From a virus: a stretch of 40,433 bases of DNA. The DNA is taken from the UHGV virus genome UHGV-0010553. One strand, written 5' to 3'. The position numbers and the translations under genes are program-made. Positions 1 through 40,433 of this stretch are shown piece by piece (positions within the stretch are counted from its first letter, which is position 1; each line of letters starts with the position of its first letter). The notes beneath the pieces are model-generated. The model searched no databases. It saw only the letters and a list, made by a program, of their open reading frames with translations, and was not told where the DNA came from.

Positions 1-234
1 GACCTTAGCGTTGCCATAGACCTTAGCGTCGTCATAGACCCAAGCGTCGCCACAGACCTTAGCGTTGCCATAGACCTCGGCGTTGCCATAGACCTCGGCG
101 TCGCCATAGACCTCGGCGTTGCCATAGACCTTAGCGTTGCCATAGACCTTAGCGTTGCCATAGACCTCGGCGTCGCCATAGACCTTAGCGTTGCCATAGA
201 CCTTAGCGTTGCCATAGACCCAAGCGTCGCCAGA
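1..234. repeat. 13 tandem copies of an 18-bp unit (consensus gaccttagcgttgccata). They are coding, giving hexapeptide repeats on the minus strand. The same array is present at 40245..40433.
   Basis: Direct reading: 18-nt periodicity with point variants (ctcggcgtc, ccaagcgtcgccaca). Bases 1-54 are identical to 40380-40433. Confidence 0.9.
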
Positions 235-378
235 GAGATTGGATTCTTTCTCAATATATCCACCTAAATTGCCCTTAGACACTCTTCGCGATTCGATGTC
301 GCAAGTTGCCTCGATTCTAAATAGCCTGCGCCCTAAAAATTCTATTGATAAATCTTCTCTTAATTTAAAATTACTCAT
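1..378 (-). CDS. Hexapeptide-repeat (beta-helix-like) protein, N-terminal part. Start codon at 376-378 (AGGAGG RBS, TAATG overlap with the upstream stop). It runs off the window start and continues, if the molecule is circular, into 40433..40002.
   Basis: Minus-strand translation gives MSNFKLREDLSIEFLGRRLFRIEATCDIESRRVSKGNLGGYIEKESNLSGDAWVYGNAKVYGNAKVYGDAEV... The repeats are V-Y-G-[ND]-A-[KEW], encoded by the 18-bp tandem repeat. The ORF-track frame MATLRS is the wrong frame. Confidence 0.55.
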   Translation of the reverse strand, partial: MSNFKLREDLSIEFLGRRLFRIEATCDIESRRVSKGNLGGYIEKESNLSGDAWVYGNAKVYGNAKVYGDAEVYGNAKVYGNAKVYGNAEVYGDAEVYGNAEVYGNAKVCGDAWVYDDAKVYGNAKV

Positions 379-9907: not shown

Positions 9908-10149
9908 TGAGAATCCTTTATTTTTCGTTTAAAATTTCGTTTATTCTTTTAAGTCCAACAGTGCCGCGCTTTGCCTCGTCTAAAATTTTTAAAGCGACTT
10001 CTTCGGTCGGGCACTCAAAGGCTTTCAGGCAACCCGTATAAATGTGGTAATTATCATCTGTTCCAAACTTTGAATCCGGCTGCTATTTTGTCGACAAGTT
10101 CAAGCGTGTATGTCGTGCCAAATCCGTTATCTAGTTCAATTGTTTTCAT
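9908..10149 (-). pseudogene. Interrupted ORF. A 31-codon frame (MKTIELDNGFGTTYTLELVDKIAAGFKVWNR*) with a GAGGT RBS is followed, in the adjacent frame, by a further 47 in-frame codons that have no start codon.
   Basis: Direct translation of the complement of 10149..9908. The frame switch is at ...GTTTGGAACAGATGATAATTAC.... Confidence 0.3.
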
Positions 10150-10179
10150 TTTTTAACCTCCAAAATTAAAAGTTGGCTA

Positions 10180-10440
10180 TCAATCCTTAGTTTCTAAAAT
10201 TGTCGCCCATATTCCTTTGCGCAACATATACTTGTTAGTTGGCAACATTTCCAAAGTTTGGGCATCAAACGACATTTGACAATTGCCCTCAACCGGCCAG
10301 CCCGTAACTTTGTTAATGTTAAAGCGAACAACTAAACGGTTGTTTATTTTTTTAACAGGCAAATCAAAAACACCAAAACTTTGCTTTTCGATGTCGCGTC
10401 CCAATTTCGCCGACACAAACTTGTACATTTCAATCTTCAT
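10180..10440 (-). CDS. Hypothetical protein (86 aa)
   Basis: First gene downstream of the 10496-10524 promoter. Confidence 0.45.
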   Translation of the reverse strand: MKIEMYKFVSAKLGRDIEKQSFGVFDLPVKKINNRLVVRFNINKVTGWPVEGNCQMSFDAQTLEMLPTNKYMLRKGIWATILETKD

Positions 10441-10495
10441 TTCGATTCCTTTCTGATTTTAAGGGCTTGGGCTTTCCTTCCCTCTTTATAGTTTC

Positions 10496-10524
10496 AATAT
10501 AACATAATTTTGTTATAGTGTCAA
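10496..10524 (-). promoter_or_regulatory. Early promoter TTGACA-N17-TATATT, overlapped by the palindrome TATAACA-N6-TGTTATA (10498-10517), a candidate operator
   Basis: Minus strand reads TTGACActataacaaaattatgtTATATT. The inverted repeat is read directly. Confidence 0.5.
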
Positions 10525-10615
10525 CATAAAAAATCAAAAAAAATGCACATTTTAAGAAAAAATATTGATTTTTTTTGTGGATTTGTTAAAATTTATTTAA
10601 AATCAGGGGGTTAAA

Positions 10616-11332
10616 ATGATCGTTGACCTAAAAAAAACACAGCGAATCGAAAAAAAAGAGTATGACCGTCACGGACGGCCGATTCTGAATCCGATTGTCT
10701 TGAACGAGAAGCGTCGAATCGAATCGATTTCGCCGGCAAACCGAACGACAAAGGACAAAATGCGACTGAACAAAATCAAACGTGACGGCGACCACTGCCG
10801 CGCCCAAAACAAGTTCAAGCTCTGCTCGAACAACCCCGAACCCATTGTCGAACTTGAAGATTTGAACAATGCCGCCGAACTTAAAACCGAGGCGCAGGCT
10901 CATCAAGTCATCAATTCAATATATTCCGGCAAGCTGCCGATTGAAGCCATGAATGAAGCGGGCATTTCGCCCAAGTCTTTTTACAGATTTTTAAGAAGAG
11001 GAGAAAACACGGTCCTGCGTTCTGAGTTTTTAAACGCGCGCGAGGTCTTCGCCGAGTACTGCTTGTTCAAACGGCAGCTTCTGGAGGAGCAACTACTCCG
11101 CGGCGTTATAGACAGCTCGACCTATACGACCCTGGCGGCTGATTATAAGTATTTGGCCGCAAAGTTCCACCCCGCGGCATACGGCGACAAACTGAAGCTC
11201 GAAACCGACGTGAAGCACACCGCCCGGTTGGAGGTCTCGCAAACCCGGGTGAAGGCCTTAAATGCGCTTTTATCGGGCAATTTATTGGAAAATCAAACAG
11301 TTACAGCAGATTATGAAGTCTTAGACGGCTAA
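10616..11332 (+). CDS. Terminase small subunit (putative). Its G+C content is markedly higher than the flanking DNA.
   Basis: Position immediately upstream of TerL; HTH-like segment PIEAMNEAGISPKSFYRFLRRGEN. Visibly GC-rich codons, e.g. ccgcggcgttatagacagctcgacctatacgaccctggcggc. Confidence 0.45.
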   Translation: MIVDLKKTQRIEKKEYDRHGRPILNPIVLNEKRRIESISPANRTTKDKMRLNKIKRDGDHCRAQNKFKLCSNNPEPIVELEDLNNAAELKTEAQAHQVINSIYSGKLPIEAMNEAGISPKSFYRFLRRGENTVLRSEFLNAREVFAEYCLFKRQLLEEQLLRGVIDSSTYTTLAADYKYLAAKFHPAAYGDKLKLETDVKHTARLEVSQTRVKALNALLSGNLLENQTVTADYEVLDG

Positions 11333-24554: not shown

Positions 24555-25446
24555 GATATATCGTCTTACGGTTCAACTCCAAGACGAGCAAGGAAAAAAT
24601 ATAAATCAGGCTCTTGAGATTCAAAATCCGTTTACAGTTAAGTTTTCGGTTGATAGATCTATCTATGCCGGATTGAACTCTTTAGATATAGATATTTACA
24701 ATCTATCCCCTAAAAACAGAAACCTTTTGTTTCAAGACGTTTATGGGGATAGAGATGGTAATTATAGAAACGTTATCTTAGAGTCCGGCTACCAAGGGCA
24801 AGGAATGTCCGTTATCTTTAACGGTAACGTTTGGTCTGCTTATTCCAAGAGAAACGGTGTGGACGTTATAACGCATATTTACGCCATTGATGGGCTTTCC
24901 ACTCAATCAGGAATGATAAATACTACCTTAAAGAGCGGAACAACCGCTCAAGAGGTTATCCAAGCTGCGGCAGGGCAACTAAAAGACCTAAAAACTGGCA
25001 CAATGAATATTCCTGACCACACATTTGATCGTCCTGTTGTCCTTGCCGGAAACGCCTATAAGATATTAAAAACTTATTCTGATGATAATGTATTTGTGGA
25101 TATGAAGACAATTCATATTATGAAACCGAATGACGCTATTGAGGGGGTTATTCCTCTTATCACAGATAGTTCAGGACTTTTAGCGACTCCTGAAAGGCAG
25201 GACGCAACATTAACTATCAGAATGATATTTGAACCACGTCTTCAAATCGGGCAGCTGATTCAAGTAAAATCAGAGATTGCGCCTCAATTTGACGGTGTGT
25301 ATAAAATATATGGTATAAAACATAACGGAACAATCAGCGATGCCGTTGCGGAGAATTGCACAACAACAATTCAACTCCAAGTCGGCTCACAAGTATTCGG
25401 GAGGTTCAATGTCCTTAAAGCCGAACAGCAACAAATCTCTAAGTAA
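24538..25446 (+). CDS. Baseplate hub protein (P2 gpD / Mu gp44-like)
   Basis: N-terminal YRLTVQLQDEQGKNINQALEIQNPFTVKFSVDRSIYAGLNSLDIDIYN resembles the GPD family start (RLTV..G.DIT...L.D..G.E.D.L.I.L.N). Confidence 0.5.
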   Translation: MGKLNRIYRLTVQLQDEQGKNINQALEIQNPFTVKFSVDRSIYAGLNSLDIDIYNLSPKNRNLLFQDVYGDRDGNYRNVILESGYQGQGMSVIFNGNVWSAYSKRNGVDVITHIYAIDGLSTQSGMINTTLKSGTTAQEVIQAAAGQLKDLKTGTMNIPDHTFDRPVVLAGNAYKILKTYSDDNVFVDMKTIHIMKPNDAIEGVIPLITDSSGLLATPERQDATLTIRMIFEPRLQIGQLIQVKSEIAPQFDGVYKIYGIKHNGTISDAVAENCTTTIQLQVGSQVFGRFNVLKAEQQQISK

Positions 25447-26071
25447 CGTATTAGACGAGTCTTTTAGTGTCTTTTCTCGGTTCTTCCATTGCGTGAAAAT
25501 CGGGGAAATTCAGTCATTTGATAAACAAAATCAAACTGTTTCCGTAAAGATTCTCTATAAAGGGATTAACGATTATAATCTTCAAGAAAGAGAATTGGTC
25601 GATTTTCCAGTTTTAGAGCAAGTTCCCGTAGTCGTTTTGGGCGGTGGTGGAACTTATATCTCATACCCTATCAAAAAGGGCGATGATTGCGTTCTCTTGT
25701 TTAACGATTACGAACTAGACGGTTGGTGGTCTTCTGGTGAGGCTAGACCTTCTGAATTTCCTCGTAGACACGATTTGTCGGACGCTATCGCTATTGTCGG
25801 GCTTAATTCTCTTGTTTCCTTAATAAAAGATTATTCGGATTTTCTGAAAATTCATTATTCCGATTCGTCAAATATCACCGTTGGAAACACAATAGAAATA
25901 ACCAACCAGACAATCAATCTTAATGGCAATTCTAATGTTTCAGGAAATGAAACAGTTTCAGGAACAGTAACAGGAGAGGTTCACTCAACACACGGTGCAA
26001 GTGGTAGCTTCTCAAATGCTGCAGGACAAACACTTACCATTGTTGACGGTGTTATAACGTCTATATCATAA
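25409..26071 (+). CDS. Baseplate spike protein gpV-like (OB-fold plus C-terminal beta-helix tip)
   Basis: PVLEQVPVVVLGGGGTYISYPIKKGDDCVLLFNDYELDGWW is a gpV OB-fold signature. The C-terminus is repetitive: ITVGNTIEITNQTINLNGNSNVSGNETVSGTVTGEV. GGGAGG RBS at MSLKPN. Confidence 0.6.
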   Translation: MSLKPNSNKSLSNVLDESFSVFSRFFHCVKIGEIQSFDKQNQTVSVKILYKGINDYNLQERELVDFPVLEQVPVVVLGGGGTYISYPIKKGDDCVLLFNDYELDGWWSSGEARPSEFPRRHDLSDAIAIVGLNSLVSLIKDYSDFLKIHYSDSSNITVGNTIEITNQTINLNGNSNVSGNETVSGTVTGEVHSTHGASGSFSNAAGQTLTIVDGVITSIS

Positions 26072-26073
26072 AA

Positions 26074-26116
26074 AAAGACCGCCTCCATTCCACGACGAAT
26101 TTTAGCGGCCTTTAGT
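26074..26116 (+). terminator. Weak hairpin AAAGACCGCC...GGCGGCCTTT followed by TAGTT
   Basis: 10-bp stem with one mismatch and a long loop. Confidence 0.25.
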
Positions 26117-26177
26117 TCACCTCTCAACTACGAAAGTATTTTTAATATACAAGATTTATCCCAAAAGTCAAGAACTA

Positions 26178-26203
26178 AAAACGAACCTTTAATTTACCGA
26201 ATG
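26178..26203 (+). other. Recombination crossover site S1 (aaaacgAACCTTTAATTTACCgaatg), forward orientation
   Basis: One of six copies of the 15-bp core AACCTTTAATTT(G/A)CC. Confidence 0.6.
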
Positions 26204-26502
26204 CTTCTGGTAGGTCTGTCTTTCAATCCGCAGATAAAACACTAGGGAATGGTGGCGCAGGTGCATTGCCGAATATTACGGGTAAATTTGCGGTAGGTAA
26301 TACTCAATCACCCCCTATTGACCCCATAGGTCAAGGAGCATTCGAAGACCATGGTATATCAGGTGGGACTGTGGGGTCTGCCTTTACGCCAGCAGGTACA
26401 TATTATGACTTTGACGCCTCGCGGTCAAACAGCTTATATCGAAGTGATACTGATATAGTGATACCTGCTAGTATTTTGGTTATGTTTGCCATAAAATATT
26501 AG
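26179..26502 (+). CDS. Promoterless tail-fibre C-terminal cassette A. It begins at crossover site S1 (KRTFNLPNASGRSV...) and ends ...FDASRSNSLYRSDTDIVIPASILVMFAIKY.
   Basis: The frame opens exactly at the site (stop-K-R-T-F-N-L-P-N). The C-terminal FDASRS...V.P....AIKY motif is shared with the other cassettes. Confidence 0.6.
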   Translation, partial: KRTFNLPNASGRSVFQSADKTLGNGGAGALPNITGKFAVGNTQSPPIDPIGQGAFEDHGISGGTVGSAFTPAGTYYDFDASRSNSLYRSDTDIVIPASILVMFAIKY

Positions 26503-26807
26503 AACTTAATACAGTAAGACACCTCAATATTGTCAGGTTGAACTTTCGCGCCGTCTTGGTAAGTTGAAGATGAACGAGAGGCGTCAAAAGCATAACCAAA
26601 CAATTTTTCTGCGTTACTTCCTGTACCCGCATAATCTCTACCAGTCGCAGCATCAACATAAAAAGCTCCCGTTGCTGATCTATCGTTTGATCTTAAAGTT
26701 GTATTACCTTTAATATTCGGCAAACTCTCGCTGTTATATGTGCCTGCTGTTCCGCCTTTTAGAAATCTTCCAACAAGGTTAGGCAAATTAAAGGTTGAAT
26801 TATAAGT
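26499..26807 (-). CDS. Tail-fibre C-terminal cassette B (TFNLPNLVGRFLKGG...YCIKF), convergent with cassette A; the stops overlap
   Basis: Starts at site S2; the LPNLVGRFLKGG segment parallels LPDLRGRF at the end of a tail-collar domain. Confidence 0.6.
   Translation of the reverse strand, partial: TYNSTFNLPNLVGRFLKGGTAGTYNSESLPNIKGNTTLRSNDRSATGAFYVDAATGRDYAGTGSNAEKLFGYAFDASRSSSTYQDGAKVQPDNIEVSYCIKF
26778..26801 (-). other. Crossover site S2 (reverse orientation)
   Basis: ggcaaattaaaggtt on the plus strand at 26782-26796. Confidence 0.6.
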
Positions 26808-26868
26808 TTACTTTTCAATAAAATGGATTTAGTATTATTCTGTTAACGTTAACGAAAGGTATTTTAAT

Positions 26869-27288
26869 ATGCTTGCATATCAATATAATGAAGATTCTAA
26901 GAAGTTTACAAACGAGATTACTTGCCAGAAAGACCCGTTAGAATCTGAAATGGCAGGTAAAGACATCTGGTTACTACCTGCTAATTCCACTTGGGAAAAA
27001 CCTTTAGAGCCTAAAGAGGGCTTTGAAGTTAAGTTTTTAGAGGGCAAGTGGCAGTATGAGGCTATCCCTGAACCTGAACCCGAGCCAGAGCCCGAACCGA
27101 CTGAAAAAGAAAAGATTGAGCGTGAAATTTGGAATCTCAAGGGCGAACTTAGCTCTACAGATTATAAGGCTATCAAATACGCCGAGGGTTGGATTAGTGA
27201 AGAAGAATACGCCCCTATTAAGGCAGAACGCCAAGCCTTGAGAGATAAGATTAACGAATTGGAAGAAAAGTTAAAAACGCTTGAATAA
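26869..27288 (+). CDS. Tail-fibre-associated protein (XkdW-like, putative fibre assembly/chaperone) with an (EP)n linker
   Basis: YNEDSKKF...DIWLLPANSTWEKPLEP...EPEPEPEPEPEP...; GAAAGG RBS. Confidence 0.4.
   Translation: MLAYQYNEDSKKFTNEITCQKDPLESEMAGKDIWLLPANSTWEKPLEPKEGFEVKFLEGKWQYEAIPEPEPEPEPEPTEKEKIEREIWNLKGELSSTDYKAIKYAEGWISEEEYAPIKAERQALRDKINELEEKLKTLE
27061..27096 (+). repeat. Simple (GAACCN)n / (Glu-Pro)n repeat
   Basis: cctgaacctgaacccgagccagagcccgaaccg. Confidence 0.8.
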
Positions 27289-27888
27289 ATGAACTATGCC
27301 TATCTAAGAATTAGCACCGTTGCACAAGACGAACAGAACCAACGCCAAGGCGTTGATTTGAAGGCAAAACAGCTCAATTTACAGATAGACAAATACATAA
27401 TTGACAAGGTTTCAGGATCTACATCTCCAAAAGTCCGAAATCTCGGTAAACTAATAAAGTGGCTAAAAACCGGTGACGTTGTGATTGTTTCAGAACTATC
27501 TAGGCTTAGCCGCTCTCTTTTTGACTTGTTTAATATTTTTCAAGCTATCCTTGCTAAAGGAATAAAACTCATCACTGTTAAAGAGAACTTTGTTGTTGAC
27601 GATTCTATCCAATCCAAGGCAATGATATTTGCATTTGGGCTAAGCGCAGAGATTGAAAAGAATCTTATCCGTGAGCGGACAAAGGAAGCATTAGAAAGAA
27701 AAAAGGCTCTGGGTGTACGCCTAGGGCGCCCACAAGGGGCAAAAACAAAAATCCATAAACTAGAACGCTATAAACAAAATATCGCTCTATGGCTTAAAAA
27801 AGGCGTTTCTAGACATAAAATAGCAAAGCGGTGTAAAGTATGCGATAAAACGTTAAGACGGTATATAAAAGCAAATAACCTCGGATAA
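27289..27888 (+). CDS. Serine recombinase, DNA invertase (Gin/Hin/Cin/Min-like)
   Basis: YLRISTVAQ (catalytic Ser), ELSRLSRS, ERTKEAL, and a C-terminal HTH RHKIAKRCKVCDKTLRRYIK. 199 aa, Hin/Gin size; sits among tail-fibre cassettes. Confidence 0.8.
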   Translation: MNYAYLRISTVAQDEQNQRQGVDLKAKQLNLQIDKYIIDKVSGSTSPKVRNLGKLIKWLKTGDVVIVSELSRLSRSLFDLFNIFQAILAKGIKLITVKENFVVDDSIQSKAMIFAFGLSAEIEKNLIRERTKEALERKKALGVRLGRPQGAKTKIHKLERYKQNIALWLKKGVSRHKIAKRCKVCDKTLRRYIKANNLG

Positions 27889-27997
27889 ACATTTTTTTTG
27901 CGCATTTTAGCCCATTTAGTGCCACTTTATGAGATTTTTTCTCAAAATAAGCCCTTAAAACGTCTAATTGTGGCAGATTCGCCATAATTAAAACATT

Positions 27998-28023
27998 TTA
28001 ACGAACCTTTAATTTGCCTAATG
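27998..28023 (+). other. Crossover site S3 (forward)
   Basis: ttttaacgAACCTTTAATTTGCCtaatgg. Confidence 0.6.
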
Positions 28024-28337
28024 GCTATTGGAGACTCACCGATGAGTTAGATGCAAGCACTGCAGTTACGAAATATGTCAACAATGAAACCTTTACGGAC
28101 GATGGATGGGCGGCGATTTCGGCTAAAGGAACTGATAGAGGAACTCCCACATATACTTGGAATGGACAATCGATTACCGGCTTTGCCAACGGAGCAAGTT
28201 ATTTGCAAATCCCCAATATATTGTCATTATCGCACCAGGCTGGTGATTCTTTTGCTGTTAATGGTGATGGCTCATATAGAGGATATATTGGAATGGCTTA
28301 TAAAAACCCTCGACAACTTTATTGCATAAAGTATTAG
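28002..28337 (+). CDS. Tail-fibre C-terminal cassette E (RTFNLPNGYWRLTDELD...LYCIKY). Near-identical inverted copy of cassette G.
   Basis: The frame opens at S3. Its 107-aa sequence is identical to ORF 31959..32282 except one residue (E/K). Confidence 0.6.
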   Translation, partial: RTFNLPNGYWRLTDELDASTAVTKYVNNETFTDDGWAAISAKGTDRGTPTYTWNGQSITGFANGASYLQIPNILSLSHQAGDSFAVNGDGSYRGYIGMAYKNPRQLYCIKY

Positions 28338-29434
28338 TATTTTATCGCATACTTAATACAAGTATCTTCCTCACTGATAATTCCTGACGTTTGCGAATCC
28401 GTGCTTATGCCCCAAACTCCGGTATTCGCCACAAATAATGAGGTGTTACCTAATACTCTATTGGTTGAAAATTGAAAGTAACCCCCCATACCAGAAGTCG
28501 CATTATTGCCGGGATAGCGAGTTTCTTTGGCATTTAAAACATTTAACCCTAAGCCGTTACCATCGCCAATAACGTTTCTCGTTAAGAACTGCCTATTCGG
28601 CAAATTAAAGGTTGATTTATCGTTCCCACTGTTTCTGGTATAAGTTGCGCCTGCCGAATCTGTGAATCCGGTGTCTGTGATTGTGGCAATAGTAGCGGTT
28701 ATTGAAGCTCCATCCGAACCATAGATAGCATCTCCAACTTCTGGAGTTGCTTTGTTAATAAAATAGTCAACACCTGATGAAGTGTATGCATAGATACCAG
28801 ATGAATAGATACCGCCGATAACGGCAAACAGGGCAGAATAAGTTGTTCTTGATACAGCTGAACCATCACAAATAAGGTAGCCTGCAGGAGCGGTTGAGGT
28901 AGACCAAGCGATGATTGCTCCGGTAGGATTACCTGCGGATTGTGTGGCGTTGTAAACCGCAGCAGATGACGGGTATTTTGTAGTTGAATCAGTCAGGTCT
29001 TGCTCCATATTAGCCAAGGTCTGAAGTCCTTGTGTAGTGTTGTAAACCAAATCCCAGTTATTGGCTGTAGTCGGAGCAATACCTGCTGTTTCATCAACTT
29101 TGCATTTATAGAGAGCGTAGTCAGAATCAGTGATAACTTTAACAACTGCGCCTTTATAATAAGTAGTTCCAGAATCATACTCAGGAATACCCTCTTGCAT
29201 AAGATAGGCAATCTGGCTTGTCTGCATATATTGAAGCCCTTGAAATTCCTCAAGAGGAGGTAGCTTTTCAGAAGAAATAGTTGCTGAGTTCCAACCTGTT
29301 TTATAAGCGTCCAAGGACTGAATTTGAGCAATATCATTTGATACAGTTCCAGTTCCTGCTTGTAAAGAGCCAAACACACCGTTATTGGTTGCATTTTCAG
29401 CAAATACTTTTTGAGTTTTTCTTGCAAGTTTCAT
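28334..29434 (-). CDS. Tail fibre protein, currently assembled. It has a constant N-terminal part with a phage tail-collar domain (29434..28614) fused at site S4 to a variable C-terminal cassette (28613..28334).
   Basis: AIIAWSTSTAPAGYLICDGSAVSRTTYSALFAVIGGIY...KSTFNLPNRQFL is a tail-collar signature; the TFNLPN is encoded by crossover site S4. C-terminus is CIKYAIKY. AGGAGAG RBS. Confidence 0.75.
   Translation of the reverse strand: MKLARKTQKVFAENATNNGVFGSLQAGTGTVSNDIAQIQSLDAYKTGWNSATISSEKLPPLEEFQGLQYMQTSQIAYLMQEGIPEYDSGTTYYKGAVVKVITDSDYALYKCKVDETAGIAPTTANNWDLVYNTTQGLQTLANMEQDLTDSTTKYPSSAAVYNATQSAGNPTGAIIAWSTSTAPAGYLICDGSAVSRTTYSALFAVIGGIYSSGIYAYTSSGVDYFINKATPEVGDAIYGSDGASITATIATITDTGFTDSAGATYTRNSGNDKSTFNLPNRQFLTRNVIGDGNGLGLNVLNAKETRYPGNNATSGMGGYFQFSTNRVLGNTSLFVANTGVWGISTDSQTSGIISEEDTCIKYAIKY
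28595..28617 (-). other. Crossover site S4 (reverse). It lies inside the expressed tail-fibre gene, at the collar TFNLPN motif.
   Basis: ggcaaattaaaggtt at 28599-28613. Confidence 0.6.
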
Positions 29435-29436
29435 AG

Positions 29437-30054
29437 CTACTCTCCTATTACTTCAATAATCTTATGATAGTTTAATGTTTCTCCGACTTTTTCGGGATTA
29501 TCATACGTCCTAAATCCCGTTTTGTAAAATGCGTATTGATTGTCGTATGTAACGAACCCGAATATTGGAGAATTTTGAACAATAACGTATCTAACGCCTA
29601 CTCCCATAGGGCGAGGTAGACAATCCTTCTGAATAGCCGCTATAACTACACGAGAAGCCCCTTCAGGAATAAAAAAGGTAAGTTCCATACCACCATTGGA
29701 TTCCGCCCTCACAGTTCGCCCAAAGAAGCTATATAATGCCGTGTCAATATCATAATGCGAACAGTTACTTGTGTTGGCAATACATTTAAACTTTAACAGA
29801 GTTCTAAACTCGTCATCTGTCAGTTCGATAATCTCGCCTTTAGTTCCGATATAGTATCTGTCAGTTCCGACATATTTAGCAAGAATATCTAATTGTTTAC
29901 CGACAGCGGTTTCAAGAGAAAATCCATCCCTGACAGCAAAAATCAAATCAACCGGAAACTGACTACCAATAGCCTTTATGGTTTCTTTTGCTTTGGGTTT
30001 ATCTCTATACTGTATAATTAAGAGTTCGGATAAATATTGTGCATAATCAAACAA
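29437..30054 (-). CDS. Baseplate protein gpI-like (P2 I / XkdU-like). TTG start immediately after the J stop.
   Basis: Position between gpJ and the fibre; ~200 aa. Confidence 0.4.
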   Translation of the reverse strand: MFDYAQYLSELLIIQYRDKPKAKETIKAIGSQFPVDLIFAVRDGFSLETAVGKQLDILAKYVGTDRYYIGTKGEIIELTDDEFRTLLKFKCIANTSNCSHYDIDTALYSFFGRTVRAESNGGMELTFFIPEGASRVVIAAIQKDCLPRPMGVGVRYVIVQNSPIFGFVTYDNQYAFYKTGFRTYDNPEKVGETLNYHKIIEVIGE

Positions 30055-31251
30055 TTATACCCCCCCCTGAACAGTTATATCAACCGTGGACAGGACAAAT
30101 TTCGTTGCAATAACAGGTGAAAGATACTCAACCCAATCTGTGCCGTTACTAGAGATTAAAACATTTAGAGCTAGACCTTCTCCACCATTAGCGTCAATAG
30201 CCGCTTGAGCGGTTGCTGTAAGAGAGGCTGTATCTGCATATCCACCAATCATAAAAGAAGTGTTATCGATGATATACTGCGAGATAGCGTCTGTATCAAA
30301 AGTAATGTCTGTTTTCAAAGACTTAATTGTAAATCTCATTTGAATATTTTGAGTTGTCGGTTCGCTCCACTTAGCAATAAACTGTTGGTTTGACGGAGTT
30401 GTAATAGTATATGAAATATCGCCTTTCATATCACAACCATAAGATTTTTTAACATATAAAGCGTTTGCAATATCTTTTGACGCTCCACCCTCTACAATAA
30501 GCCAAATACAATGAGGTGGGATACCCTTTGAATCGGTAACGCTAGAGTAGTTTTCATAAAGCGCACCATCCGTAACGCCGTTTAGTTGGAGGACATAAGC
30601 TAAAAGGCCGTTAAGGTATCCCGAAGAACCGATTGAAACAGATTGTCTGCGTCTGATTTTAAGAGAGGTATCTGTTTCTTCATTCTCTCCTAAAGTCAGT
30701 TGCGCACCAGTATTTATAACCGAAACCACGCCCAAAACAATAGTAACAGGAGTTGTGATAGTTTCAGGGATAACTTCCACCCTTCCAAGCTGTTGGGCGC
30801 GGAATAAAACACTATGCGTTCCAGCTGTCAGTGTTTGAGAGTTTACGAGAATAAACTGAGTTCCTGCGTTATCTTGAATCGTGTAACCAGTAGCGTCAAC
30901 ATCGTTATAATTTGCGTCTAGTCCTTGTAAAGATACTGTTCTGTCTACTGTTATTGAAATGTCTACCGTTGTGAAAGTTCCGCCTTTACGGAATACGTTA
31001 TTGATAGCACATCTCTCGTCAAGGAGTCTTCCTGAACAGTTATCGGGGTCAAAAGAATTATATAGTTGAACCAAGAGTTCTCTAATATCCGTCTGTCCCT
31101 GAGCAAAAATATTGATAGCCTGTCCATCAGGCGAGTTCTGCTCGACAGAAATATCATCTCCATATACAGTCTTAAAAGAAGTTGTCAAATCATCGACAAG
31201 CTCTGTATTTGTTGAAACCTGTAAACCGTTTGCGCTTAATGAATCGGTCAT
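30055..31251 (-). CDS. Baseplate J-like protein (P2 gpJ / Mu gp47 family)
   Basis: 398 aa, located between the gpW-like and gpI-like genes; GAGGT RBS. Confidence 0.55.
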   Translation of the reverse strand: MTDSLSANGLQVSTNTELVDDLTTSFKTVYGDDISVEQNSPDGQAINIFAQGQTDIRELLVQLYNSFDPDNCSGRLLDERCAINNVFRKGGTFTTVDISITVDRTVSLQGLDANYNDVDATGYTIQDNAGTQFILVNSQTLTAGTHSVLFRAQQLGRVEVIPETITTPVTIVLGVVSVINTGAQLTLGENEETDTSLKIRRRQSVSIGSSGYLNGLLAYVLQLNGVTDGALYENYSSVTDSKGIPPHCIWLIVEGGASKDIANALYVKKSYGCDMKGDISYTITTPSNQQFIAKWSEPTTQNIQMRFTIKSLKTDITFDTDAISQYIIDNTSFMIGGYADTASLTATAQAAIDANGGEGLALNVLISSNGTDWVEYLSPVIATKFVLSTVDITVQGGV

Positions 31252-31589
31252 ATCTTTACCTCAATAGTTTCATTGTAAATCGTCTTTAATCTTGCTGCGC
31301 AAGTATATACTCTACCAGCCATAGAGCTTTCAAAGAACGTAAGCTCAGTAACGCCTTCTTCTGTGGATATAATTCTTTTTATGGCGGAATCTGCGTCATC
31401 TTTTGAAACCTTAGAACCTAAGATATTCTTCCAGTCAACGCCCTTTTCCATATCAAAAAAGCAATCTCTATACCACGATAGGATTTTTGTCTTAATCGAA
31501 TAAGCAATAGCTAAAGCATCTGAGGAATAATCCTGCTTACCTTTTCCGAACAACCAATCGTGATTACTATCCAAAGCTCTAAATCTCAT
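31248..31589 (-). CDS. Baseplate wedge protein gpW / gp25-like
   Basis: 113 aa, upstream of J; typical gene order W-J-I-fibre. Confidence 0.45.
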   Translation of the reverse strand: MRFRALDSNHDWLFGKGKQDYSSDALAIAYSIKTKILSWYRDCFFDMEKGVDWKNILGSKVSKDDADSAIKRIISTEEGVTELTFFESSMAGRVYTCAARLKTIYNETIEVKI

Positions 31590-31606
31590 TTAACACCTCT
31601 ACAAGC

Positions 31607-31635
31607 ATAATATAAGACTTGATTAAAAAAATCAA
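31607..31635 (-). promoter_or_regulatory. Promoter TTGATT-N17-TATTAT reading into gpW-J-I-fibre. It lies inside the putatively invertible S4-S5 segment.
   Basis: Minus strand reads TTGATTtttttaatcaagtcttaTATTAT. Confidence 0.4.
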
Positions 31636-31649
31636 ATCATATGGAATTT

Positions 31650-31675
31650 AAAACGAACCTTTAATTTGCCTAATG
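31650..31675 (+). other. Crossover site S5 (forward)
   Basis: aaaacgAACCTTTAATTTGCCtaatg. Confidence 0.6.
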
Positions 31676-31962
31676 CTTCTGGCAAATCTCTTTATCAGAA
31701 CGACACTCTAGACATAGGTCAAGGAACACTTGGCGCTGTGCCGAATATTAGAGGAAGTGTTGAAATTAATACCGGTACACATACTTTTAATGGCGCATTT
31801 TATAGCACAAATGTTTCATATAGTCGCAGTGTATCATCTTCGACCCATACTACTGACGTTGCGTTAGGATTTGACGCCTCTAAATCTTCTTCCGTTTATA
31901 CGGACGACATAACTCGCGTAATCCCTGCAGCCATTCATATTGTTTTTGCGATAAAATACTAA
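31651..31962 (+). CDS. Tail-fibre C-terminal cassette F (KRTFNLPNASGKSLYQ...FDASKSSSVYTDDITRVIPAAIHIVFAIKY), homologous to cassette A
   Basis: Frame opens at S5; shares the N-terminal LPNASG and C-terminal motifs with cassette A. Confidence 0.6.
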   Translation, partial: KRTFNLPNASGKSLYQNDTLDIGQGTLGAVPNIRGSVEINTGTHTFNGAFYSTNVSYSRSVSSSTHTTDVALGFDASKSSSVYTDDITRVIPAAIHIVFAIKY

Positions 31963-32297
31963 TACTTTATGCAATAAAGTTGTCGAGGGTTTTTATAAGC
32001 CATTCCAATATATCCTCTATATGAGCCATCACCATTAACAGCAAAAGAATCACCAGCCTGGTGCGATAATGACAATATATTGGGGATTTGCAAATAACTT
32101 GCTCCGTTGGCAAAGCCGGTAATCGATTGTCCATTCCAAGTATATGTGGGAGTTCCTCTATCAGTTCCTTTAGCCGAAATCGCCGCCCATCCATCGTCCG
32201 TAAAGGTTTCATTGTTGACATATTTCGTAACTGCAGTGCTTGCATCTAACTTATCGGTGAGTCTCCAATAGCCATTAGGCAAATTAAAGGTTCGTTT
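31959..32297 (-). CDS. Tail-fibre C-terminal cassette G (inverted near-identical copy of E)
   Basis: Protein identical to cassette E except one residue; starts at S6. Confidence 0.6.
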   Translation of the reverse strand, partial: KRTFNLPNGYWRLTDKLDASTAVTKYVNNETFTDDGWAAISAKGTDRGTPTYTWNGQSITGFANGASYLQIPNILSLSHQAGDSFAVNGDGSYRGYIGMAYKNPRQLYCIKY

Positions 32298-32298
32298 T
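32273..32298 (-). other. Crossover site S6 (reverse)
   Basis: ggcaaattaaaggttcgtttt at 32278-32298. Confidence 0.6.
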
Positions 32299-32310
32299 TA
32301 GTTCTGCAAT

Positions 32311-32339
32311 TTGACAATTAAATTTAGTTTTCGTATTTT
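32311..32339 (+). promoter_or_regulatory. Promoter-like TTGACA-N17-TATTTT upstream of 32361
   Basis: ttgacaattaaatttagttttcgtatttt, then an AAAAAGGAG RBS. Confidence 0.35.
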
Positions 32340-32360
32340 ATCCTAAAAAGGAGTATAAAG

Positions 32361-32579
32361 ATGAGAGTTGGTAGCCAAATATTGATTGATAGAACGACAA
32401 CGGCAAGTGCTGCTTATGTCGGTGTTTCCGCTAGTGGAACAAAAGAAGGCGATCCCAACTGGTCTATCGAAAAAATAACCTATGATGAAGATGGAAAACC
32501 TATCTCTATTCAATGGGCAGAGGGAACTGATGAAGAAGTCCTCGTTTGGGATAACCGTGTAACATACAAGTATAAATAA
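32361..32579 (+). CDS. Small hypothetical protein (72 aa)
   Basis: Strong RBS. Confidence 0.45.
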   Translation: MRVGSQILIDRTTTASAAYVGVSASGTKEGDPNWSIEKITYDEDGKPISIQWAEGTDEEVLVWDNRVTYKYK

Positions 32580-33535
32580 TGATAACCGCTATTGACTTAA
32601 AGACTGGGAAGCCCTTACTCCTTGATATTGCCAAAGAAGAAATAACTCCCACCCTTGGCTCGCACTCCACATTAACAGACAGAACTATTGCCGACCAACA
32701 CCCTATTGGGTCTATTACTGGTTTGGAAACCCGTCTTTCAACTAATGAAGAAGACATCGCTACCCTTAAAAACGACAGGGACGATTTAGGCGACCAAGTC
32801 CACTCAATTCAAGCTGACGTAAACTCACTTAAAGATACTTCTGTTACTCTTACCGGAGAGCAGACGTTGTCTAATAAATCATTTAAAGATTCCCTGAAAG
32901 CAGTTGGAGATGAAACAATAGGAGAAACTTTTGAGGTTTCATTCCTTGCCGGAACTGCGCAGCTTGCAACAAACAATGGGTTAGATATTCTTTCGGAAAC
33001 TAACTTTTTAACCAATCCTCAAACAGAGGCAACGACTGATTGGGATTCTCTTGCTCCATCAGAATTGCCTAGCAAAAGTCAAGTTGCTCAGGCTATTTCA
33101 GAGGTTACAGGCTCTCACTTTGACAAGTGGGTTGCGATGGGAGCTCCAGAAGCTCTTACTCTTACGGAAACCCTGCAAAAGGTATATATCCCCGCGACAA
33201 CAAGATTTCCGAATATTCCGCCTGCAACATTTGAGCTTACAGAAGACGGGACAGGTATCACATTCAAAAAAGCCGGTTTAATTCATCTTAAGAGAAACGT
33301 ATCCCTTAGTGGAGCTAATCAGGTAAACCTTTATTATGAGGCTCGTATTAACGACCAACAGCTTGCACCTTTGCAGACACAAGCTGTTAGTGTTTCTGAA
33401 AACACGATGTCGTTTAGTATTGAATTTTATTGGCAAGTAACAGCTAATCAGACAATATCTATTTGGGCTAACTGCTTAACTGGAACAGCTCCCTTAAACT
33501 ATAAGGGAGTCTGCACAATGGTTGAATATCTATAA
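32579..33535 (+). CDS. Second fibre-like or receptor-binding protein candidate (coiled-coil N-terminus plus C-terminal beta-rich domain)
   Basis: LETRLSTNEEDIATLKNDRDDLGDQVHSIQADVNSLKD coiled coil, then a Ser/Thr-rich region. Confidence 0.35.
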   Translation: MITAIDLKTGKPLLLDIAKEEITPTLGSHSTLTDRTIADQHPIGSITGLETRLSTNEEDIATLKNDRDDLGDQVHSIQADVNSLKDTSVTLTGEQTLSNKSFKDSLKAVGDETIGETFEVSFLAGTAQLATNNGLDILSETNFLTNPQTEATTDWDSLAPSELPSKSQVAQAISEVTGSHFDKWVAMGAPEALTLTETLQKVYIPATTRFPNIPPATFELTEDGTGITFKKAGLIHLKRNVSLSGANQVNLYYEARINDQQLAPLQTQAVSVSENTMSFSIEFYWQVTANQTISIWANCLTGTAPLNYKGVCTMVEYL

Positions 33536-33796
33536 TTCGCCAATTTTAATAAGCAGATCCAAATTATTGATAATATATCCTCTTGCTCGTCTGTCCTGAC
33601 TTGCTTTATTGCGAACGTTTTTAATCATTCCGACACGAGAGAGAGCGTTTGTTATCTTGCGAACTGATGATTCTGATAGTTTAAATCTTTCAACAATCTC
33701 TTTGAAAGACACTTGTTCGTTTTTATAAATAAACTCCAAGATGTCTTCTGCGTGTTTATATGAAAGTGCTAGGAATAATTTTTGCCGCCTCGTCAT
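33530..33796 (-). CDS. Winged-helix transcriptional regulator (MarR/ArsR-like)
   Basis: VSFKEIVERFKLSESSVRKITNALSRVGMIKN. Confidence 0.5.
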   Translation of the reverse strand: MTRRQKLFLALSYKHAEDILEFIYKNEQVSFKEIVERFKLSESSVRKITNALSRVGMIKNVRNKASQDRRARGYIINNLDLLIKIGEL

Positions 33797-34130: not shown

Positions 34131-34620
34131 ACCACCCCTTTGACATATCTTTCAATGCGTTTTCAAACTTCTTTCCGACTTTACTTGTAGATACTCCCGC
34201 CTCGCACATGTCATTTATGAGCTGATTCAGGGCTTGTGTGGCGTTTTCTCTGTTTGCCTCGCCCCAACTATGCTCTTTTAAGACTCTCCCCCTCAGGAGC
34301 TCAATAACAGCCTTCCTTTGCTCTTCTTTTAACGGAAGAACTTTAATTGCTTTCCAAACACACTCCTTTGTCCAGTCGTCAAGTTCAGAGATATACATTA
34401 TCTCAACAAGACTAGCAATCCATTTGTAGTGCCAACGCAAATCATTATAGGTAAGAAAACTAGAGCAACCGGAATCCCAAAAGATTCTCAAAAGTCCGTG
34501 GAAAGCCTTATTCTGTTTGTTGGTTTTATACTTTTTCTCGTCCACTACTTCTATAAAACCATAATCAGAATCAATCTCAATTCCGGTTAGCTCTTTTATT
34601 TTCTCTTTGCTGTAACGCAT
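34117..34620 (-). CDS. NinB/Orf-like recombination mediator (putative)
   Basis: NKQNKAFHGLLRIFWDSGCSSF...LRWHYKWIASL parallels the NinB QN(R/K)..W..L...W core; adjacent to the ERF annealase. Confidence 0.35.
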   Translation of the reverse strand: MRYSKEKIKELTGIEIDSDYGFIEVVDEKKYKTNKQNKAFHGLLRIFWDSGCSSFLTYNDLRWHYKWIASLVEIMYISELDDWTKECVWKAIKVLPLKEEQRKAVIELLRGRVLKEHSWGEANRENATQALNQLINDMCEAGVSTSKVGKKFENALKDMSKGWYETN

Positions 34621-35288
34621 TATTGATCTTCTACAATAGTTTTAACAATTTCAGAACAACCCCAATAAACATCGGCTACATTTTCTCCATTAAGAAGAAG
34701 TTTACGGTTTCCTGAGAATTTAGTTAAGTTTTTGTATTCCTCGCTGTCTTGAGCAAACTTTTCTTTCCACTGATACCACAAAGCACTGACAGATTTAGGA
34801 TTTTGAGCGTTTGCAATAGCTTTTACAAAATCAGCGAACGTTTCAAGTTTAGGTGCATTCTTTTTGCCTTTAGCACTTCCGGCTACTCCATCATCGTCTT
34901 CTGTTTTGATATGCAACAGCGCATAAATAGAATAACGGCGCATATATGTTTCAGCACTGCCAACCGCCTGAGGGTCTATATCATCAACATATAGAGGCAT
35001 ATCGCATTCAATAATCTGTCCTGATTTATGAATCAGTTGACTGTGCAAAACAAAAGCCGGTGTCTCAATCTCAAGCGGCTCTTTGCCGTGTATTGAGCGT
35101 TTAAATACTCCATCTGTCTTCTTTACGTTCTGAATCAGAATAAAGTTGTTTTCGTGGATTTTAGGCAATACCTCTTCCAAGAGGGGGGTAAGTTCAACAT
35201 ACTTATACCCGTAACCCTCTTTGGCTTTTGTCATATTGTCAATGCTTGTGATTAACTTTTGATAATCGTTAAAAAATGTTTCTTCCAT
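34620..35288 (-). CDS. ERF-family single-strand annealing protein
   Basis: AVGSAETYMRRYSIYALLHIKTEDDDGVAGSA matches the ERF signature (GSA.TYARRY.L..L.GI..EDDDG). AGGAGG RBS at MEETFF; the ORF track's upstream extension is unsupported. Confidence 0.7.
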   Translation of the reverse strand: MEETFFNDYQKLITSIDNMTKAKEGYGYKYVELTPLLEEVLPKIHENNFILIQNVKKTDGVFKRSIHGKEPLEIETPAFVLHSQLIHKSGQIIECDMPLYVDDIDPQAVGSAETYMRRYSIYALLHIKTEDDDGVAGSAKGKKNAPKLETFADFVKAIANAQNPKSVSALWYQWKEKFAQDSEEYKNLTKFSGNRKLLLNGENVADVYWGCSEIVKTIVEDQ

Positions 35289-35311
35289 AGTAGTTCCTCC
35301 TAACATCAATA

Positions 35312-40039: not shown

Positions 40040-40433
40040 CGCAAATCTGTTTTAATATTGGTTTCCAAGTTTTCCACCATTCAACAGCTTTTTTACCATC
40101 CATTTTCTCAATTTCCGAATCTTTGAATTTGAACCAAGCTACTTTTGAATGATATTGGCAACCAATTTTTATGTGTAAGGGCGTTAAGGTTATATTATAT
40201 TTTTGATTGGCGATGTTTACTACACTGCGTTTGGTGTCGATAGCGTCGCCATAGACCTCGGCGTTGCCATAGACCTCGGCGTTGCCATAGACCTTAGCGT
40301 TGCCATAGACCTCGGCGTCGCCATAGACCTTAGCGTTGCCATAGACCTTAGCGTCGTCATAGACCCAAGCGTCGCCACAGACCTTAGCGTTGCCATAGAC
40401 CTTAGCGTCGTCATAGACCCAAGCGTCGCCACA
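40002..40433 (-). CDS. Hexapeptide-repeat protein, C-terminal part: repeats to 40245, then a ~80-aa non-repeat tail ending ...CDAQDKDLEKTNE*
   Basis: Hand translation of the repeat frame: ...VYGNAEVYGDAIDTKRSVVNIANQKYNITLTPLHIKIGCQYHSKVAWFKFKDSEIEKMDGKKAVEWWKTWKPILKQICDAQDKDLEKTNE. The ORF-track entry 40220..40432 is the wrong frame. Confidence 0.5.
   Translation of the reverse strand, partial: CGDAWVYDDAKVYGNAKVCGDAWVYDDAKVYGNAKVYGDAEVYGNAKVYGNAEVYGNAEVYGDAIDTKRSVVNIANQKYNITLTPLHIKIGCQYHSKVAWFKFKDSEIEKMDGKKAVEWWKTWKPILKQICDAQDKDLEKTNE
40245..40433. repeat. Same 18-bp tandem repeat array as at 1..234, 10.5 units
   Basis: Direct reading. Confidence 0.9.

Follow-up and report, generated by a model that had tools for sequence, protein, structure and literature searches.

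Placing a DNA-inversion crossover site in frame within a fibre gene is a classical principle, represented by the recombinases Gin, Cin, Min and Pin and by phages Mu and P1. In the Gin/gix system of Mu, the Cin/cix system of P1 and the Pin system of e14, the crossover site lies within a conserved fibre peptide and inversion preserves the reading frame; the Mu gix site (TTATCCAAAACCTCGGTTTACAGGAA), for example, encodes FIQNLGLQE at about residue 170 of 504 in gene S. The Min system of the plasmid/prophage p15B, a multiple-inversion system with a serine invertase and six mix sites, was reportedly described by Sandmeier et al. in 1990-1994. Members of the Din family to which such enzymes belong are roughly 60-70% identical to each other and are interchangeable. 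The p15B Min system is also cited in the account of the Rin shufflon of Bifidobacterium prophages, which relies on a tyrosine recombinase and an 11-bp rix site (PMC6109161). E. coli prophages with a Gin/Pin-type system carry the entire Collar domain in the variable, invertible part of the fibre (PMC4134206). In the current study, we describe a locus in the virus genome UHGV-0010553, analysed as a single stretch of 40,433 nucleotides (nt; hereafter the window), in which a six-site DNA-inversion shufflon very probably varies the receptor-binding tip of a collar-type tail fibre resembling T4 gp12.

The 17-mer ACCTTTAATTTGCCGAA has six matches in the window, each with at most one mismatch in a search that allowed three. 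Chance level was assessed with 100 dinucleotide-preserving shuffles, which gave a mean of 0.35 matches and did not reach six in any case (0/100). The six copies share the consensus ACCTTTAATTTGCC[G/T]AA and alternate in orientation (+ - + - + -). Five of them—S1 (26185-26201, +; core ACCTTTAATTTACCGAA), S2 (26779-26795, -), S3 (28005-28021, +), S5 (31657-31673, +) and S6 (32275-32291, -)—head the silent cassettes A, B, C, E and C', respectively, the left flank of S5 being the region upstream of the sheath-initiator/wedge gene. The remaining site, S4 (28596-28612, -), lies within the expressed fibre gene, where amino acids (aa) 275-280 read TFNLPN.

Read in the cassette direction, all six sites translate as T-F-N-L-P-N, in frame with a cassette of 92-110 codons. 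An earlier note on this DNA had stated as much for the five silent copies, and their frames do stay open for 98-110 codons. It had also placed KSTFNLPN at 28595-28617; the peptide and its frame hold, but the end coordinate was one base short, since K-S-T-F-N-L-P-N occupies 28595-28618 (-) inside the 366-aa open reading frame (ORF) at 28334-29434 (-). A stop codon just upstream, also mentioned there, is an apt description for S1, S2, S3 and S6 (nearest in-frame stop 2, 4, 1 and 2 codons away) and a loose one for S5 (10 codons). Alignment of the six sites at the nucleotide and peptide levels yields a single peptide and only two variable positions, namely position 12 (G/A, giving the Leu codons TTG/TTA) and position 15 (G/T, giving the Pro codons CCG/CCT). 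Neither changes the amino acid, and TFNLPN would thus be encoded by any hybrid site as well; all six cassettes are also in frame across the core, which supports the earlier proposal of an in-frame, scarless exchange. The 15-bp core named there needs correction: exact identity across the six copies covers 12 nt (A-ACCTTTAATTT), set within 18 near-identical nt.

The enzyme presumed to act on these sites is a small serine recombinase of 199 aa (27289-27888, +), encoded between S2 and S3. Its intact ORF contains both domains, with a PF00239 match at aa 3-143 (6.6e-31) and a weak helix-turn-helix match (HTH_23, aa 159-195), and it matches PHROG 125, 'DNA invertase' (6e-42). We propose that this protein would recombine pairs of inverted sites, each made up of a left half and a right half. 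In this scheme, every right half is a cassette; the left half is supplied by the fibre constant region at one site and by stop-containing non-coding DNA at the remaining five, so that inversion would swap right halves. An inversion at S4 would thereby join aa 1-274 to another tip of 92-110 aa with no change of frame and no residue altered, the swap being scarless because the core encodes TFNLPN. Strand exchange probably takes place within the invariant TTTAA; core polymorphisms within genomes confine the exchange point to the invariant positions 1-2, 4-8, 11, 13-14 and 16-17. The exchanged cassettes may in turn change host range.

Relatives and other samples provide evidence of recombination at such sites. 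Relatives with invertases 62-68% identical to that of the window carry 2-5 sites each, encoding the same peptide with a near-identical core, and in every one of the four lineages in which this region can be seen, a serine recombinase is present alongside the sites. The constant regions of P0003-P0006 are near-identical and their C-termini unrelated, with the switch falling exactly at TFN[IL]P[DN]. Contigs 3300012662_000028 (L016, L053) and 3300013383_000354 (L017) are 99.4-99.8% identical and rearranged: cassette c1 is fused to the fibre in L016/L053 and to an unrelated flank in L017, that flank sits on the far side of the shufflon in the L016/L053 genome, and the invertase-side site carries different cassettes in the two, with homology stopping 6-7 bp ahead of the core. 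Between L019 and L021 (90-95% identical), a block bounded by two sites is inverted. The window phage itself assembles in three other samples as pieces that end at the shufflon locus.

Several of these relatives show further features of their own. The circular contig 3300012662_000028 closes through a crossover site (L053 10079-10176, L016 10508-10607), and two different cassette continuations come after the core there, a pattern that marks mixed isomers in the assembly graph of that sample. In L021 (9992-10408), the invertase is truncated near aa 114 by a deletion with one end at the edge of a site, and the baseplate-fibre block is colinear with the spike gene; L021 is apparently a 'frozen' derivative. 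The L019 invertase (9992-10885) is frameshifted and runs on into a cassette, and an apparent in-frame read-through from invertase to cassette was rejected because tblastn shows the frameshift. In L010 (12383-12400), the invertase stop codon is the TAA within the site core (ACCTTTAAT); only a 13-codon cassette remnant follows, and the left flank resembles the GNT coding flank of the fibre. The two outermost cassettes around the L010 baseplate-fibre block are paralogues that share their ends but not their middle. L008 (10658-16160) has six sites, with lysis genes (a lysozyme and others) on a segment between two of them and one silent cassette that duplicates the start of the expressed cassette; there is no invertase within the 20 kb analysed. 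L006 contains the same 18-mer, with no invertase in the 19.8 kb examined.

Compared to the classical inversion systems, the locus combines shared and divergent features. Gin, Cin and Pin use two sites rather than six, and their junction lies in the N-terminal third of the fibre so that about 335 aa and a dedicated chaperone (U/U') are swapped, whereas here only 92-110 aa change and the junction falls inside the Collar domain. Since Mu gix already encodes part of gene S, recombination within a coding peptide, described earlier as a neat solution, is not new. The p15B Min system is closer: it likewise has a small serine recombinase, six sites in both orientations and many isomers, and alternative fibre 3' ends are fused in frame to one constant 5' part. 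The enzyme described here, however, is just 28% identical over 179 aa to Mu Gin, a Din-family relative of Min, and its site bears no resemblance to the 26-bp Din consensus (PMC4134206). In a further departure from Min, sites flank the constant part and three baseplate genes, and no chaperone gene moves with the cassettes. Rin offers the parallel of multi-cassette receptor-binding variation, with short asymmetric sites ahead of C-terminal cassettes of 95-100 aa, but it differs in its tyrosine recombinase and in the TP901-1-like fold of its receptor-binding protein (PMC6109161). Thus, the locus would work like a Min-type shufflon, yet it shows neither of two Din-family hallmarks, mutual identity of the enzymes and a 26-bp dyad site of the gix type. 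Our literature search found no description of a crossover site inside the collar motif, the closest reports being of a PilV-collar fusion targeted by inversions (PMC9881135) and of the E. coli prophages mentioned above (PMC4134206). The locus is set apart by its site and enzyme lineage, by where in the fold the junction falls, by a single chaperone for all cassettes, and by a probably invertible segment that carries the wedge genes and the fibre constant part.

The place of the junction within the fibre fold was examined with the Pfam Collar profile (PF07484, 57 positions), which matches the native fibre at aa 172-211 over profile positions 1-40 with 52.6 bits against a cut-off of 24 bits. The match stops at position 40 because of a 57-aa insertion (28625-28795, -; aa 214-270), which is predicted to be beta-rich, lies between the collar helix and the TFNLPN strand, and is absent from the closest relatives. 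In the aligned relatives, ...AVIGTTYGxGDGxTTFN[LI]P[ND]... runs uninterrupted, whereas this fibre has about 57 extra residues between AVIGG and TFNLPN; the relatives match Collar positions 1-56 of 57, with TFN[LI]P[ND] at about positions 46-51. When the insertion is removed in silico, the score climbs from 52.6 to 68-78 bits and the match extends across the junction, to position 51 with cassettes C and D, 55 with E, and 57 with B. Judged from these alignments, the crossover site is the collar tF.LPD motif, which would place it in the last strand of the domain and not at the very end of the profile. The earlier description of TFNLPN as the canonical end of the collar therefore needs adjustment: the motif is the expected one, at profile positions 46-51, but it stops six positions short. 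Where the last 4-6 profile positions (LVGRFL-type) exist at all, it is the cassette that encodes them; cassettes B and E do so, B by starting with LVGRFL and so completing the profile.

Structure prediction agrees weakly with a junction inside the collar. In the AlphaFold2 (AF2) models, T-F-N forms a β-strand bordering the confident collar, at residues 275-277 of the window fibre and 219-221 of the relative P0005, and in both models confidence falls just past this motif and recovers at the conserved C-terminal IKY strand. Modelling of the collar end, which the earlier note had suggested, showed this strand at the collar edge but gave no confident models of the cassettes. Foldseek matches the P0005 model to the cyanophage A-1(L) fibre (8KEC, 2e-5) and T4 gp12 (5IV5, 1.5e-4; 1OCY, 3.5e-4), with root-mean-square deviations (rmsd) of about 15 Å or more and from a model whose mean predicted local distance difference test (pLDDT) score is 55; the window fibre model gave no match at E≤1e-3. 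Like T4 gp12 and other PF07484 fibres, the fibre scores above threshold with the Collar hidden Markov model; it differs from them in the 57-aa insertion inside the collar. The papers on structures 9CUY and 8KEC deal with fibre N-termini only, or with regions other than this one. Elsewhere in the fibre, aa ~90-135 (29030-29165, -) gave repeated local Foldseek matches of 46-53 columns, with rmsd mostly ~2-3 Å and all with E >0.05, to the chitin-binding module of Serratia chitinase B and to the fibres of Agrobacterium phages Milano and 7-7-1. Inspection of the cassettes by eye showed no HxH metal-binding motif.

The site sequence appears to answer to two constraints. T-F-N is coded ACC-TTT-AAT in six of six copies, which has P=0.067 per site from the codon usage of this phage, where ACC accounts for only 18% of Thr codons. 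A TFNLPN-type motif is kept in collar fibres generally, as the Pfam profile shows, and in L006, a relative with no visible shufflon. We compiled 30 distinct sites from nine genomes, 20 of them silent copies, and found the family-wide invariant positions to be A-AC.TTTAA...T.CC..A. In the silent copies (n=20), where the left side is non-coding, A at -1 and AAA at -7 to -5 are still conserved. The fixed codons, together with the retention of -7 to -5 and -1 in silent copies, uphold the earlier suggestion that the core is constrained by both the recombinase and the protein.

Because the sites alternate in orientation, the locus consists of three convergent cassette pairs separated by two gene-bearing segments. 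The first pair comprises cassette A (26185-26502, +; 105 aa, of the LPNI.G...FDAS...IKY type) and cassette B (26499-26795, -; 98 aa); the second, cassette C (28005-28337, +; 110 aa) and cassette D (28334-28612, -; 92 aa), which is currently fused to the constant region; and the third, cassette E (31657-31962, +; 101 aa) and cassette C' (31959-32291, -; 110 aa), which has one E/K difference from C. The members of each pair (A/B, C/D and E/C') overlap by 4 bp at their stop codons, and all cassettes share the C-terminus IK[YF]. C and C' form the arms of a 359-nt inverted repeat (28000-28358 and 31938-32296) that is 99% complementary. One gene-bearing segment holds a homologue of tail-fibre assembly chaperones (26869-27288, +), directly upstream of the invertase gene, and the invertase gene itself. 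On the other, the fibre constant part (28613-29434, -; aa 1-274, with the N-terminal part of the Collar domain and the insertion) shares one site-bounded segment with three baseplate genes (29437-31589, -), which encode a DUF2612/Phage_Wedge1 protein, a J-like wedge protein and a W-like sheath initiator. The single chaperone outside the cassettes, together with their invariant IK[YF] C-terminus, suggests a common assembly route for all tips.

Alternating orientation also means that the permitted inversions span odd numbers of segments and keep position parity. Cassette pairs would stay at positions 1, 3 and 5 and gene segments at positions 2 and 4, and both gene segments could flip and trade places. 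By enumeration, 384 arrangements are reachable, with each cassette fused to the constant region in 64 of them; from the present state, A, C and E are one inversion away, and B and C' are two. Since the baseplate-fibre segment would itself be invertible, it would need orientation-independent expression, and the 67-bp spacer that separates S5 from the first baseplate gene contains a match to the sigma-70-type promoter consensus (TTGATT-17-TATTAT; 31607-31635, -), a candidate by consensus match only. Taken over the entire scan, promoter matches show no enrichment (21 found against 19.5 expected from shuffles), so a promoter carried by the mobile segment is put forward here as a hypothesis; the corresponding spacers in L010 and L019 contain promoter-like hexamers by eye. 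Cassette pairs on both sides of the baseplate-fibre block also occur in L010-L012 (three samples) and in L019, while in L006, L008 and L016 the baseplate-fibre genes are colinear with the spike gene and there is no upstream cassette pair.

A number of observations weigh against an active shufflon of this kind. No alternative fibre isoform of the window phage was found, cassette D being present in 4/4 contigs with this constant region, and the sole difference between samples is one single-nucleotide polymorphism (SNP), which places the C' allele beside the invertase in L001. A comparison with gix, which the earlier note had suggested for the Din-type sites and which was run on gix, returned similarity at chance level: the best ungapped scores at the six sites are 12-14/26, against shuffled means of 12.7-13.0. 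Dyad symmetry is likewise absent (best score 6-8/12 at the sites), and an asymmetric site is unusual for a serine invertase that binds as a dimer. Matches in the PDB are slightly better to gamma-delta/Tn3 resolvases (1.7e-11 to 2.6e-10) than to Gin (8.9e-10). The cassettes are modelled with low confidence in both fibres (mean pLDDT 63 for the window fibre, with the cassette below 50, and 55 for P0005), as expected of monomer predictions of a trimeric tip. A search of 185,579 species genomes returned no relatives of the invertase and hence did not identify the host. The proposed mechanism would also have to avoid deletion between direct repeats.

Some of these points would suit a fossil, in which the sites and cassettes are left over from a formerly active system or from duplicated fibre fragments, no longer recombine in this phage, and leave the fibre effectively fixed as the constant region plus D. 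The presence of cassette D on every contig with this constant region fits such a history, as do the truncated invertase and frozen arrangement of the close relative L021 and the frameshifted invertase of L019. In the window, however, the invertase retains a complete ORF and both of its domains, each of the six cassettes has an open frame, the cores vary at synonymous positions only, and assemblies break at the locus in at least three samples; we therefore regard a fossil as improbable. Rearrangement could also proceed without the invertase, by homologous recombination through the repeats, driven by an ERF-type phage recombinase or host RecA. The C/C' inverted repeat is long enough to invert 28350-31946, and an ERF-family single-strand annealing recombinase gene, which could promote such an inversion, is located at 34620-35309 (-). 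Against this, apart from C/C' and a 54-nt stretch shared by S1 and S5 (81% identity), the sites have only ~18-30 nt in common, rearrangements in relatives break at the core even where the flanking DNA is unrelated, and a dedicated serine recombinase is found with the sites in each of the four visible lineages, which makes homologous recombination a very improbable agent.

Part of the layout, namely the duplicate C and the minus-strand baseplate-fibre block, might instead be an artefact of short-read assembly from mixed isomers. The window comes from a metagenome as a circular scaffold, invertible fibre regions are on record as sources of such artefacts (PMC4134206), and contigs L003-L005 from other samples end inside or exactly at the C/C' repeat, so short reads cannot fix the orientation of 28350-31946; a flip of this block is equivalent to an S3 x S6 inversion. 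Yet the C-D and E-C' 3' junctions are both found in independent samples, C and C' are told apart by one SNP and by their left flanks, and the same cassette-pair architecture recurs in L010-L012 and L019. As inversion never separates a convergent pair and both 3' junctions exist, two copies of C are required, and an artefact on this scale seems unlikely to us. The reading that we prefer thus remains a shufflon driven by the serine recombinase.

Building on that reading, we advance two further propositions, which we regard jointly as less likely than not. One is that the baseplate-fibre segment may be a mobile expression site, a design with an invertible baseplate-fibre segment that is seen in at least three lineages (the window, L010-12 and L019); a 3-kb structural operon with its own promoter would then flip and relocate between cassette banks during host-range switching. 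The other is that collar-fibre cassettes may be captured in a plug-and-play manner. Any acquired collar-fibre fragment would in that case bring a near-cognate site with it, because the core is the coding sequence of a motif widespread in collar-type fibres.

With this locus, in-frame fibre switching by inversion reaches an uncultured myophage clade whose recombinase and sites are unrelated in sequence to those of Gin, Cin and Min. The layout also shows that the 'constant' side of a shufflon need not have a fixed genome position. From a biotechnological perspective, the junction after T-F-N-L-P-N is a precise natural swap point for tips of ~100 aa on collar-type (gp12-like) fibres, with no need for a cassette-specific chaperone gene, which is of direct use for the engineering of phage and tailocin host range. 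A megablast search of 25300-33600 against 50,697 phage records found no similar DNA. The nearest relatives in culture are Bdellovibrio phage phi1422, through its J-like protein (37%), and Bacteroides phage B124-14, through its invertase (43%). B124-14 carries its invertase among early genes and has no collar sites, and collar sites are also absent from the 44%-identical faecal contig MT836212. The exact 18-mer gave 27 single scattered matches against ~17 expected by chance (our estimate), which we take as chance.

The shufflon is flanked by a spike gene (25340-26071, +) on one side and by a 318-aa ORF (32579-33535, +) on the other. The chaperone homologue at 26869-27288 contains an (EP)6 linker, EPEPEPEPEPEP. 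An 18-bp tandem repeat, GACCTTAGCGTTGCCATA, occupies both ends of the window (1-236, 13.1 copies; 40241-40431, 10.6 copies) and, as the source contig is circular, forms one array of ~24 copies, for which iterons or a repeat-containing gene are possibilities.

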